Assembly: GCA_051294905.1 (NCBI GenBank)
Contig: CM119371.1
Span: 5,582,001-5,646,000 of the forward strand
Length of the DNA stretch: 64,000 bases
Direction: 5' to 3'
DNA from: Botryllus schlosseri
Taxonomy: Eukaryota
Under the pieces are notes generated by a model. That model was not told the origin of the DNA. It saw only the letters and a program-made list of their open reading frames with translations, and made no database searches. The position numbers were made by a program, and so were the translations under genes. Below are positions 2,846 through 50,504 of the stretch, piece by piece (position 1 is the first letter of the stretch; every line of letters begins with the position of its first letter).

Positions 2846-3238
2846 GTTGAATATCAAGTATAGTAAACAGTGACGCCATTACTTAGAATGTATATTCAAT
2901 ATTATTATATATGACCGATTTGAGTTATTCCCAACGTTTGCGGCGAGTGCGACAATGATATATCGTTATTCTTATGGACGCGGTGATACGGTGACGTAGC
3001 TGATATAGACGCGACATGATAGTGTTAGGGACCGCGGTGCTACTTAAAGACGCCATAGTTCAGACATGACAAATGACCGATCGTGTTCTAAGTCTTTCCT
3101 CGCTATTGATCGCTAGCTGAATAGTACTTTCAGATCGGATTATTCGCACCTTGTATACCGCTGTTTCGCACCTACAGAATAGTCTGCTGTTCACAGTTAC
3201 AACAAGAATCACAAGTATACACATTATACATTCATTTA

Positions 3239-3421: not shown

Positions 3422-4194
3422 CCGCGATCGCTCGCAAGATAATACCTAAAGGCCGTATCAGACGAGGCGATGTCGGCGGAGCGTTAGTGTTTGTTTTATC
3501 ATCGCTGCCATCGGCCGAATCGCCGCCGATTTTAATTGACAGTGTCAATTAACTCGGCGACATCGCCGGCGATGAGAGAAGTGAGAGATGCGCTCATGCG
3601 TATCCATATATAAACCAGTGTCGAGACTTGAATAGCGTCACTTTTGCTCAAGCCGTTTTGCGGACGGACTATCTGGCGAGGCATTGCGAAACGAATTACT
3701 GTGATGTAGTACTAAATTATTGAGCTGCTTCACTTATCCAGTATAGCCGGCGTTGCAAAATCGGATTCACCCACCACCTTCGAGTAGCACCAGCACGCGC
3801 ACATTCTTCTGCAGCTATCATGGCAGTCAAAACTCGTGCTACTTTCAACTTTTTTGACCTACCCTTACAAATACCATACTACCATGGTTCCGAGAAGGTT
3901 TCATTCGACAAGACATTGCAGCATGAACACATTGGACAGGCATCATAACCATATTGCAGAATTAGTTTCGAATATTTTCGGCTAGTTGTTACTTTGTTTC
4001 TGGATAATTTTGACCAGACGTGACTTTTGACTTCAAGCCGAAAGAAAAGAAAATCGTCAGCTCGACAAACAAAACGGACAATGTACCCCTTGTTATAGGA
4101 CTGGTAGCACTCTAAATTTGTTCTGTCAAAGGTCCAAGGAAATATAAACCAGCCAACTCTAGGCCCTAAATGTATCTAGCTCCGCTGCACAATT

Positions 4195-4365
4195 AGGATT
4201 CTTCAGAATATTTATTCTGTTCGGATTTTCTGGATTACGGACAAGATTTTTCCGATTTGCATGGTTATTTGGATGAGATTGTTCGTATTCGGAAGGATTG
4301 CTCCTCAGAGCTTTGAGCTGTCGGATGGATTTGGATTCTCATAAATCACTATCCGCCCATCACTG
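4195..4365. mobile_element. Terminal fragment of the hAT family seen at 14382-16955
   Basis: Reverse complement resembles cagtgatgagcggat...aatccgtccgacag; ends atccgcccatcactg. Confidence 0.65.
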
Positions 4366-25578: not shown

Positions 25579-25933
25579 CTCCGAACCAGATACTCGTCCC
25601 TAATCGCCTGGTTGAACCGGGCTGATGGTATCACACTTGTTCTAGAATTGTTCCGAATCTAATATTCAGTGATCCCGGGGATTTGTTGAAGACACAGTCA
25701 ATTAGCAGTTTATTGTCTCGGAACTGAAATCTTTCGGACAATCAAGTTGAGACCTGAACGTCCCAAATCTTCTACCCGCAGCCAATATCCGAATCTGAAA
25801 TGTGATTGTGATCTACAAATGTATGTGCGGAACATCTGTAAGGAACTACTCGTCTGAATTGTCAGGTTGCCGATCATCACAATGGCTACGCTGATAATGT
25901 TGAAAATGATGATTTTCATGTTACATGAGACAT

Positions 25934-26408
25934 TGTTAAACTGTTGTATATATTGTACATATTGTGTATTCGTTGTATACTGTACTAGTGTTTGGAATAT
26001 TCTGGAACTTTGTTAGCTAACCGCTGGTCTCCCTGCAGGAGTGTGAATGACTCATATTGAAAGTGTTCTGGTTTCTCGTGTACGTTCGAGTTAATGTTTT
26101 GATACTCGGGTATAATTGGTTTGATTCTGGGTTACCTCGTGGTAGTACGATACGTCGCTCGCTGTATGAACAGGTCTGCTGTAATATACTCTGCTGTGTG
26201 TGTTGGACTGATGTCTGTCAAGTGTAAGAAATAGGGAATCTCAAGCCGTAGGTAGAACGGAGTAGATCCTGAATTTCATCAAAGGTTATGGGCCCAGCAC
26301 GCTTCCGCTGCGCCACTCTGCTGTGTGTGTTGGACTGATGTCTGTCAAGTGTAAGAAATAGGGAATCTCAAGCCGTAGGTAGAACGGAGTAGATCCTGAA
26401 TTTCATCA
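25934..26408 (+). mobile_element. Copia-like LTR, captured tRNA-iMet half and duplicated LTR 3' end
   Basis: TG...CA unit (25934-26281) with a second copy at ~50210-50504; followed by ggttatgggcccag (copia-type PBS). 26315-26408 repeats 26188-26281. The LTR start and TSD (gacat/gataa) are uncertain. Confidence 0.8.
26284..26322 (-). tRNA. 5' half (nt 1-39) of initiator tRNA-Met; a captured fragment, not a full tRNA gene
   Basis: Reverse complement is AGCAGAGTGGCGCAGCGGAAGCGTGCTGGGCCCATAACC, the conserved animal tRNA-iMet 5' half including the CAT anticodon. The 3' half is absent. Confidence 0.92.
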
Positions 26409-26619
26409 GATAATTGTACTAAACTGGTATTATTAGGTCATAAGTTTGTTGTTCTTGGATATTGTTATTTATCAAACTGTTCCGTTTTTGCTTATTTTTT
26501 CCGTTTTTCAGACTGGGCTGCCATAATATCAGCTTGGTTGAATACTTGTTTTTAAGTAGAGAGCGGTTGATGTGTGATGCTTGAAGAAGTTTAAAGTAAC
26601 ATACAGATAATCCAGAAGA

Positions 26620-28059
26620 ATGACAAACATGTGCTGGATCTGTGGAAAGAGCTTCCATCGTAAGGGCGGATTGAAAGCTCACTTGCGATTCCACCTTATA
26701 AATAGAAATACCGAATGTGAGATCTGCGGAAAAACCTTTGCTGCAATCAGTTTATTGAAAAAACATTTACTATCCCACACTTTTTTGAAAAATCATGAAC
26801 ACAGGGGCATTGGCAAAGAGTATAATCAGATTCTTCACTTGAAAAGACATGCGGATACACGTACTGCTCACCTTGGAGTCAAAAACCACGACTGTGAGAT
26901 CTGTGGAAAATCATTTGTGCGGGTTGGCGACCTGAAAACGCATGTAAATATACATACTGGAAGCAAAAACTTTTCATGTCAGATCTGCGGGCAAACGTTT
27001 ACCCGGTTTGGTCACTTGAAAACACATGGACATACACATACTGGAGTAAAAAACTATGCATGTCAGATTTGCGGAAAAGCGTTTACCCATATTCGTGACT
27101 TGAAACGACATGAAAATACACATACTGGAGTCAAAAACTATGCATGTCAGATTTGCGGAAAAGCATTTACCCATATTCGTGACTTGAAACGACATGAAAA
27201 TACACATACTGGAGTCAGAAACTATGCATGTCAGATCTGCGGAAAAGCGTTTACTCAGCTTGGTAACTTGAAACGACATGAGAATACACATACTGGAGTC
27301 AAAAACTATGCATGTCAGATTTGCGGAAAAGCATTTACCCATATTCGTGACTTGAAACGACATGAAAATACACATACTGGAGTCAGAAACTATGCATGTC
27401 AGATCTGCGGAAAAGCGTTTACCCAGCTGGGTGCCTTGAAAATACATGAAAATACACATACTGGAGTCAGAAACTATGCATGTCAGATCTGCGGAAAAGC
27501 GTTTACTCAGCTTGGTAACTTGAAACGACATGAGAATACACATACTGGAGTCAAAAACTATGCATGTCAGATCTGCGGAAAAGCGTTTACCCATCTTGGT
27601 GCCTTGAAAATACATGGAAATACACATACTGGAGTCAAAAATTATGAGTGTCAGATTTGCGGAAAAGCGTTTACCCATCTTGGTGCCTTGAAACGACATG
27701 AAAATACACATACTGGAGTCAAAAACTATGCATGTCAGATTTGCGGAAAAGCATTTACCCATATTCGTGACTTGAAACGACATGAAAATACACATACTGG
27801 AGTCAGAAACTATGCATGTCAGATCTGCGGAAAAGCGTTTACCCAGCTGGGTGCCTTGAAAATACATGGAAATACACATACTGGAGTCAAAAACTATGAG
27901 TGTCAGATCTGTGGTAAAGCGTTTAGTCTGCTCAGTAACTTGAGAACGCATGTGCATACACATACCGGAGTCAAAAATTTTGAGTGCCAGACGTGCGGAA
28001 AAGCGTTTACCCTGCTTGGTAACTTGAAAAGACATGGAAATACACATACAGCAGAATAG
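26620..28059 (+). CDS. Tandem C2H2 zinc-finger protein (16 intact fingers plus 1 degenerate); possibly the last exon of a longer gene
   Basis: Uninterrupted 479-aa ORF of CxxCGKxF...H...H repeats with TGV(K/R)NY linkers. Confidence 0.92.
   Translation: MTNMCWICGKSFHRKGGLKAHLRFHLINRNTECEICGKTFAAISLLKKHLLSHTFLKNHEHRGIGKEYNQILHLKRHADTRTAHLGVKNHDCEICGKSFVRVGDLKTHVNIHTGSKNFSCQICGQTFTRFGHLKTHGHTHTGVKNYACQICGKAFTHIRDLKRHENTHTGVKNYACQICGKAFTHIRDLKRHENTHTGVRNYACQICGKAFTQLGNLKRHENTHTGVKNYACQICGKAFTHIRDLKRHENTHTGVRNYACQICGKAFTQLGALKIHENTHTGVRNYACQICGKAFTQLGNLKRHENTHTGVKNYACQICGKAFTHLGALKIHGNTHTGVKNYECQICGKAFTHLGALKRHENTHTGVKNYACQICGKAFTHIRDLKRHENTHTGVRNYACQICGKAFTQLGALKIHGNTHTGVKNYECQICGKAFSLLSNLRTHVHTHTGVKNFECQTCGKAFTLLGNLKRHGNTHTAE
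27061..27900 (+). repeat. Coding minisatellite: ten near-identical 84-bp zinc-finger units
   Basis: tgtcagat(t/c)tgcggaaaagc(g/a)tttac...cacatactggagtca(a/g)aaactatgca repeated with a period of 84 bp. Confidence 0.95.
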
Positions 28060-50169: not shown

Positions 50170-50504
50170 TGTTACTGACGGCTGACAGACTCTAGAATAT
50201 TTTTTTGGAATACTTTGGAATATCCTGGAACTTTGATAGCTAACCACTAGTCTCCCTGCATGAGTGAGAATGACTCATATTGATAGTGTTCTGGTTTCTC
50301 GTGTACGTTCGAGTTAATGTTTTGATACTCGGGTATAATTGGTTTGATTCTGAGTTACCTCGTGGTAGTACGATACGTCGCTCGCTGTATGAACAGGTCC
50401 GCTGTAATATACTCTGCTGTGTGTGTTGGACTGGTGTCTGTCAAGTGTAAGAAATAGGGAATCTCAAGCCGTAGGTAGAACGGAGTAGATCCTGAATTTC
50501 ATCA
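50170..50504 (+). mobile_element. Solo LTR of the Copia-like family at 25934
   Basis: ~290 bp nearly identical to 25990-26281 and ending tttcatca, with no PBS after it. The 5' boundary is uncertain. Confidence 0.8.

Follow-up and report, generated by a model that had tools for sequence, protein, structure and literature searches.

A probable dead-end product of half-tRNA-primed reverse transcription in the genome of Botryllus schlosseri

The genome of Botryllus schlosseri holds a 511-bp insert in which a full long terminal repeat (LTR) of a copia-type element is followed by AA, a DNA copy of the 5' half of an initiator tRNA and nucleotides 291-384 of the LTR. Our best reading, which we consider probable, is that plus-strand strong-stop DNA was copied through the whole half-tRNA primer, annealed by the eight nucleotides ACTCTGCT to the minus-strand copy of the LTR, and that the product was integrated. 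The insert documents a replication error of a known type, of which such traces are rare, and does not represent a new kind of element. It lies in the stretch analysed here (the window), which comprises 64,000 nt of assembly GCA_051294905.1 (contig CM119371.1, 5,582,001-5,646,000, forward strand) and to which all positions refer unless another contig is named.

Results

Architecture of the insert

All parts of the insert are read on the plus strand. The complete LTR (25898-26281, 384 bp) belongs to a copia-type family that we call family A; it begins TGTTG, finishes TCATCA and has the TG...CA termini. It was delimited by the start common to the family, the end motifs and BLAST, in which 25898-26295 matched nt 1-398 of the 3116-bp parent element at 98.0%. 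An AA spacer (26282-26283) follows; comparison of the junctions shows that normal elements of families A and B have the same spacer ahead of their primer-binding site. At 26284-26322 stands a copy of initiator tRNA-Met in antisense, nt 39 to 1, which agrees at 39/39 positions with two tRNA genes; its first 12 nt lie where normal elements have their primer-binding site. Next comes a second copy of the final 94 nt of the LTR (26315-26408, ending in CA); it corresponds to parent LTR nt 291-384 and is 100% identical to 26188-26281, and a repeat search returned the pair as an exact direct repeat with a spacing of 127 nt. The age of the insert is not readable from these 94 identical bases.

The word ACTCTGCT at 26315-26322 is both the end of the tRNA copy (last 8 nt) and the start of the LTR tail (first 8 nt). 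The same word, equal to a copy of tRNA nt 8-1, lies within the complete LTR at 26188-26195, the putative landing site. Each LTR contains this word a single time, and the rest of the 3116-bp parent, internal region included, is free of it. A sequence-only reading of the window had already described this succession of LTR end, AA, reverse complement of tRNA-iMet nt 1-39 and second LTR tail, as well as the 8-nt overlap shared by the tRNA 5' end and the LTR, and each of these features was found again here. The start of the LTR, which had been placed at 25934, had to be moved: since all family copies found share 36 more bases to its left, the LTR begins at 25898. Once this start is set, a perfect 5-bp duplication, GATAA, is seen at 25893-25897 and 26409-26413. 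The perfect target duplication argues that the insert entered the chromosome as an LTR-ended unit, by integrase, and the earlier proposal of an integrated mini-element without internal region is supported for a unit of 511 bp.

The title of that reading, according to which the element jumped back into itself, suggests self-integration of the cDNA into its own LTR. This is misleading, as the inner junction joins the copy of the tRNA 5' end to LTR nt 291 and not to an LTR terminus, and carries an 8-nt overlap and no duplicated target, which points to strand transfer. A related possibility is that a cDNA fragment was captured at a chromosome break without integrase. Replication intermediates are captured in this way in yeast according to a passage of PMC11372161, and a family B locus without target duplication (L070, described below) would fit such an origin, but the outer ends of the window insert are exact LTR termini bordered by the 5-bp duplication typical of the family. 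We therefore give next to no weight to self-integration or break capture and retain strand transfer followed by integrase insertion.

A tRNA gene or a tRNA-derived SINE was ruled out as the source of the tRNA match, which covers nt 1-39 only and is antisense; ARAGORN found no tRNA gene in the window. As to the surroundings, a 479-aa open frame with tandem C2H2 zinc fingers (26620-28059, plus strand) lies 212 bp downstream of the mini-element, and a second, 5'-truncated family A LTR is found at 50214-50504 (LTR nt 94-384, 96% identity).

Normal relatives of the window LTR

The 495-Mb genome was searched with 25934-26408 as query. The commonest complete form of family A measures 3116 bp and has one frame of 765 aa, which encodes a copia-type gag (PF14223) and a Pol beta-barrel (protease barrel). 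No integrase and no reverse transcriptase were found in this frame, and family A is by its coding content non-autonomous. Longer copies hold later insertions, such as the non-LTR element in L068. Perfect 5-bp duplications flank 10/10 other family A copies with both flanks available (four full-length elements and six solo LTRs).

Family B has 284-bp LTRs and elements of approximately 4958 bp, with one 1456-aa frame that encodes, in this order, a copia-type gag, a beta-barrel, a pre-integrase domain, an integrase core, an SH3 domain and RVT_2. In the frame of L091, rve spans residues 623-716 and RVT_2 residues 975-1215, and this copy is flanked by the 5-bp target duplication AAATG/AAATG. Because families A and B share their LTR termini, the AA spacer, a 12-nt primer-binding site and the polypurine tract, family A probably draws its enzymes from family B or a close relative. 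The gag of family A, together with the termini, primer-binding site and polypurine tract that it has in common with family B, also assigns the window LTR, as judged from sequence, to the Ty1/copia type (Pseudoviridae). The features of this type that were found are a copia-type gag (PF14223 E-values of 5e-17 and 2e-17 for family A, 4e-14 for family B and 2e-33 for a third family, C), an integrase ahead of RVT_2 in family B, and TG...CA LTRs with a 5-bp duplication.

The normal junction between LTR and internal region is essential for the interpretation of the insert. In the first set of loci, all six close 5' LTR junctions consist of AA and 12 nt that match tRNA nt 39-28 except for a C at position 8, followed by an unrelated leader. 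Normal family B junctions have the same AA and 12 nt with C at position 8 (3/3). The primer-binding site of 14-15 nt assumed earlier is thus replaced by one of 12 nt with a mismatch. Genome-wide, a pattern of LTR end, AA and site returned 38 junctions (control pattern, 0), with C at position 8 in 32, G in four and A in two. This C pairs with neither tRNA variant of the genome. The base of the primer is present in none of the 32 normal junctions, and the six non-C junctions all lie within aberrant or diverged structures. Since 32/38 junctions keep the C and no normal copy has the tRNA base, normal transposition cycles do not pass on the primer sequence, a statement that is drawn from genomic copies and not from marked elements. 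The possibility, raised as a refutation by the sequence-only reading, that the 39 nt are the normal primer-binding site of full-length members is contradicted by the same counts (12 nt in 6/6 close junctions, C in 32/38 genome-wide). In families A, B and C alike, the match of the primer-binding site begins at tRNA nt 39; the next position is G in the tRNA genes and A in the elements.

Several family A and B insertions (L010, L023, L027, L067, L070) have flanks that belong to the same G-rich satellite-like repeat with TTAGGG-like units, which may be a preferred or a tolerated target of both families.

Origin of the 39-nt stretch

Two tRNA-Met(CAT) genes of the Botryllus genome (C4:20237192 and C15:18475952; pattern search and ARAGORN) agree with the opposite strand of the 39-nt stretch at each of their first 39 positions (39/39). 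In both, A1 faces U72, the anticodon stem contains three G-C pairs and the T loop is rich in A, which we take to be the marks of a eukaryotic initiator tRNA. A genome-wide search for the 39-mer on both strands with at most two mismatches gave 51 matches and its reversed-order control pattern none; the tRNA match is far above chance.

Which tRNA served as template can be read at position 33. This position is C in the two genes, and in one more with a further mismatch, and U in some 46. A DNA copy of the primer is expected to carry G when made from a C33 gene product and A when made from a U33 gene product. Both the G and the A variant are present among the primer copies in the genome, from which it follows that the tRNA itself was the template. 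In the window insert the tRNA base G stands at the mismatch position and is followed by tRNA sequence as far as nt 1. The tRNA base at this position and the continuation along the tRNA argue that the stretch was templated by the primer and not inherited from a parent element. The template of the stretch was thus a C33-type tRNA. Its tRNA origin reads as unambiguous for nt 39 to 9 only, as nt 8-1 are common to the LTR. Copying very probably reached nt 1, i.e., a primer with a mature 5' end, because the overlap amounts to 8 nt and each guiding base fewer would leave a coincidence of one in four. By its extent, the DNA copy indirectly implies a primer of nt 1-39.

The tRNA context also bears on an assembly or polishing artefact, in which a solo LTR or a full element would have been mis-assembled into a duplication with 127-bp spacing. 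Repeats are where assemblies fail, and the insert junction is known from the assembly sequence alone. Yet an assembler could hardly invent a 39/39 match to the 5' half of the animal's own initiator tRNA in exact register with the AA spacer and the site, with the tRNA base at the mismatch position and a perfect target duplication around the whole; shorter primer copies moreover exist at three other loci. An artefact is in our opinion very improbable, and we continue with copying of the primer.

Botryllus has approximately 50 initiator-type tRNA-Met genes, most of them with U instead of C at position 33 (L032-L060 and further matches, with clusters on C8, C14 and C15). They are arranged in large tandem clusters, and in 6/10 loci scanned a tRNA-His gene starts 4-6 nt after the tRNA-Met gene, while a tRNA-Asn and a second tRNA-Met were each found next to it once. 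The tRNA-Met/tRNA-His pairs could represent dimeric tRNA genes or else a repeat derived from tRNA.

Uniqueness of the 511-bp form

Among 42 matches (40/260 candidates scored), the window locus is the only one that covers the whole query. It is also the only exact match to the 39-mer outside a tRNA gene among the 51 matches with at most two mismatches. A 20-nt pattern gave 68 matches, of which 49 are preceded by the G of the tRNA and 19 by the A of the elements; the latter are the window, three family B loci and 15 family C copies. The 511-bp form, whose uniqueness rests mainly on these pattern searches, is single-copy in the 495-Mb genome and hence an accident, as the sequence-only reading had foreseen for the case of one copy, and not a TRIM-like family.

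A mobile, non-autonomous mini-family of the TRIM type, for which the 39 nt would serve as a long primer-binding site, was accordingly rejected. The insert does have an LTR, a primer-binding region and a right end of the LTR type, and family C shows that long tRNA matches can be heritable. Against this stand the single copy and the structure itself: no polypurine tract separates the tRNA copy from the LTR tail, and U3 is missing from the piece on the right, which would leave a transcript unable to regenerate the LTR. We consider a TRIM-like origin extremely improbable and treat the insert as a unique product.

Family C: a long inherited match

Family C is a third copia-type family, with 15 loci (L073-L087) on 12 contigs, e.g., at G000:C2:6501676. 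Its LTR measures approximately 197 bp, ends in ...TTCAACA and has no spacer before the tRNA match. This match is the regular primer-binding region in 15/15 copies, with the same letters after it. In three copies it consists of 29 matches in a row (tRNA nt 39-11), one mismatch and two more matches (31/32), and in the remaining 12 it has one to three substitutions. The 29-nt match of family C compares with 12 nt in families A and B. A long half-tRNA match thus seems able to be normal and inherited in this genome, though not in the family of the window element. The long site may stem from an old read-through that became fixed or from selection for a longer primer duplex.

Other loci with primer copies or odd junctions

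Copies of the tRNA beyond the normal site were found in rearranged structures in 4/4 cases, namely the window and three family B loci. In this sample, copying of the primer goes together with dead-end products.

The first of these loci, L069 (G000:C4:11230500-11238500, minus strand), consists of an LTR, AA and a 22-24 nt tRNA copy, continued by internal nt 2852-3034 with a 2-nt overlap; no target duplication was found. By its arrangement it is a parallel case to the window insert, with read-through of the primer and a subsequent forward jump to another landing site. Two loci that share this course but differ in landing site argue for a recurrent failure mode. In L070 (G000:C5:10383500-10391500), an LTR that is about 3 nt short at its 5' end is followed by AA and a 28-nt tRNA copy of the U33 type. 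This LTR was later split by nested short inverted-repeat elements and sits inside the G-rich satellite; no target duplication was found, and the locus looks like captured plus-strand strong-stop DNA. The third locus, L071 (G000:C6:11744200-11752500, approximately 4077-4260), carries the reverse complement of LTR nt 151-283, then LTR nt 260-284, AA and a 29-nt tRNA copy, again of the U33 type, and has the appearance of a folded-back minus strand that went on to copy its own sequence and the primer. The primer copies other than that of the window end at tRNA nt 18-16, 12 and 11.

The remaining two non-C junctions deviate in other ways. L067 (family A; G000:C10:13027200-13034800) is flanked by the target duplication CCCCC and has lost the stretch from its primer-binding site to an internal look-alike of this site (9/10 letters, approximately 750 nt downstream) and with it gag; a mis-targeted plus-strand transfer is a possible cause. 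L072 is a diverged relative.

Proposed course of events

In the reading that we favor, reverse transcription would have gone wrong in a single round and yielded a dead-end product, which integrase would then have inserted; we hold this to be probable. Plus-strand strong-stop DNA would start at the polypurine tract, copy the LTR from minus-strand DNA and then AA. It would go on to copy the primer, still joined to the minus strand, up to the 5' end of the primer. As the normal acceptor could pair with 12 nt only, the last 27 nt would remain unpaired. The unpaired 3' end, ACTCTGCT, would then anneal to the sole complementary 8-mer on the minus-strand DNA, inside the copy of the LTR, and the annealed plus strand would be extended to the end of the minus strand. 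The predicted product terminates correctly on both sides, in U3 on the left and in U5 on the right; with both ends normal, integrase could insert the molecule. Read-through of the primer with strand transfer by microhomology, as envisaged by the sequence-only reading, is supported by the lack of the 39 nt in the parents, by the tRNA base at the mismatch position and by the parallel in L069.

The second strand could be completed by two routes. Either a heteroduplex would be integrated and resolved by host replication, or the 3' ends of the read-through plus strand and of a nascent minus strand would pair and extend each other. The routes differ on whether transcription starts at 26188. TATA-like motifs would place the transcription start approximately 50 nt upstream of 26188, or of the corresponding box, in families A and B and at the box itself in family C, and the inverted arm of L071 extends to family B LTR nt 151. 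That the 94-nt tail may equal R-U5, with a transcription start at 26188, is kept as a variant of the model only. The word ACTCTGCT is intact in 26/29 family A LTR copies, a count that is uninformative on constraint because the LTRs are 92-99% alike.

The main competitor of this course is a two-step origin, in which a full-length family A element with a 39-nt tRNA copy inserted at GATAA and later suffered a deletion between its two ACTCTGCT words. The final sequence and the target duplication would come out the same, microhomology deletions are common, and L067 illustrates that integrated family A copies can have deletions beside the primer-binding site along with target duplications. The pattern searches, though, revealed no element in the genome in which a 39-nt copy is followed by internal sequence, and a plus strand with 27 unpaired 3' nucleotides would have no simple route to a complete element. 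In addition, the deletion must begin exactly at the end of the tRNA stretch, a position that only the one-step course predicts, and two rare events are needed. We judge the two-step origin quite unlikely and keep to a single faulty round of reverse transcription.

Discussion

Half-tRNA priming of copia-type elements is known from a small number of biochemical studies, in flies and in yeast. Kikuchi (1986) and Ke (1999) reportedly described initiator tRNA-Met as the primer of Drosophila copia and yeast Ty5, through its anticodon stem-loop or its 5' half, and the copia primer found biochemically is said to comprise nt 1-39. The Botryllus fossil implies a primer of this same extent. In the Botryllus genome, DNA copies of the primer are available that place the primer end at tRNA nt 39 and indicate that two initiator-tRNA gene variants both prime. 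The window insert is an unusually clean molecular fossil in a field where direct evidence of half-tRNA priming is scarce. As a single locus, it is a curiosity with no evident effect on the host.

The modification state of the primer offers one explanation for the exceptional length of the copy. Initiator tRNAs carry m1G9 and m2G10, and m1G blocks reverse transcriptases. The tRNA copy of the window passes G10 and G9 with the correct bases, whereas the other primer copies end earlier. Full read-through would fit a primer without the usual methyl groups at G9 and G10, which we note as a lead and not as a result. The series of copy stops (nt 18-16, 12 and 11, and 11 in family C) with one full read-through provides a natural read-out of how modification of G9 and G10 may set the plus-strand stop.

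Passages of PMC10886601 and PMC5371799 describe copia and Ty5 as primed from the anticodon stem-loop of initiator tRNA-Met. Families A and B resemble these elements in a primer-binding site that is complementary up to tRNA nt 39, and in being of the Ty1/copia type with 5-bp duplications. They differ in the host, the 2-nt spacer, the 12-nt site and the fixed mismatch opposite tRNA position 33. The kind of evidence differs as well, since it is a genomic DNA copy of the primer here and not RNA from particles.

Run-on of the plus strand has a counterpart in retroviruses. According to PMC8599865, loss of the stop in the primer tRNA lets plus-strand DNA run on and end in sequence that is non-complementary for plus-strand transfer. 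The likeness lies in plus-strand strong-stop DNA that passes the tRNA part matching the primer-binding site and is mismatched to its acceptor (PMC8599865, same passage). The retroviral case described there concerns whole tRNA-Lys3, in which the stop lies at m1A58, and DNA that runs on past it reportedly fails to integrate (PMC8599865). In Botryllus, by contrast, a half-tRNA would have been run through to its 5' end, and a chance 8-nt match would have rescued an integrable but dead germ-line product.

Two further classes of aberrant cDNA are comparable. Inserts of the tRNA primer or the primer-binding site occur at HIV 2-LTR junctions, as stated in part of PMC5618025. Letters derived from the primer are likewise kept beside the U5 end in aberrant cDNA (PMC5618025, in part), but 2-LTR circles are, in the account given there, unintegrated and have both LTR termini at the junction. 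The Botryllus product, on the other hand, is integrated, and its second piece comes from inside the LTR and is attached through microhomology. In the case of Ty1, replication intermediates with nucleotides that occur only in cDNA are captured at chromosome breaks, as a passage of PMC11372161 reports. There, too, intermediates become genomic DNA (PMC11372161), which fits L070 and L071; the window element differs by its integrase-type ends and target duplication. Full-text literature searches, with most subscription journals outside their scope, retrieved no description of an integrated LTR element with a copy of a whole half-tRNA primer.

The landing site may have a function of its own, although we consider this rather unlikely and put it forward only tentatively. 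In this proposal ACTCTGCT would be a second functional contact of the primer: nt 1-8 of the half-tRNA would pair with a box in the element RNA, 94 nt upstream of the LTR end, to form a two-part site, and the 29-nt site of family C (31/32) would mark the natural plus-strand stop just before G10 and G9. Nucleotides 1-8 could pair with the box because the 5' acceptor strand is without a partner in a half-tRNA. A two-part primer site that uses other tRNA arms is known from Ty1. The box of family C, ATTCTGCT, lies at the same distance of 94 nt and would pair with all eight tRNA bases, including one G-U. In family B, 6/8 letters of the box are kept, at 82 nt.
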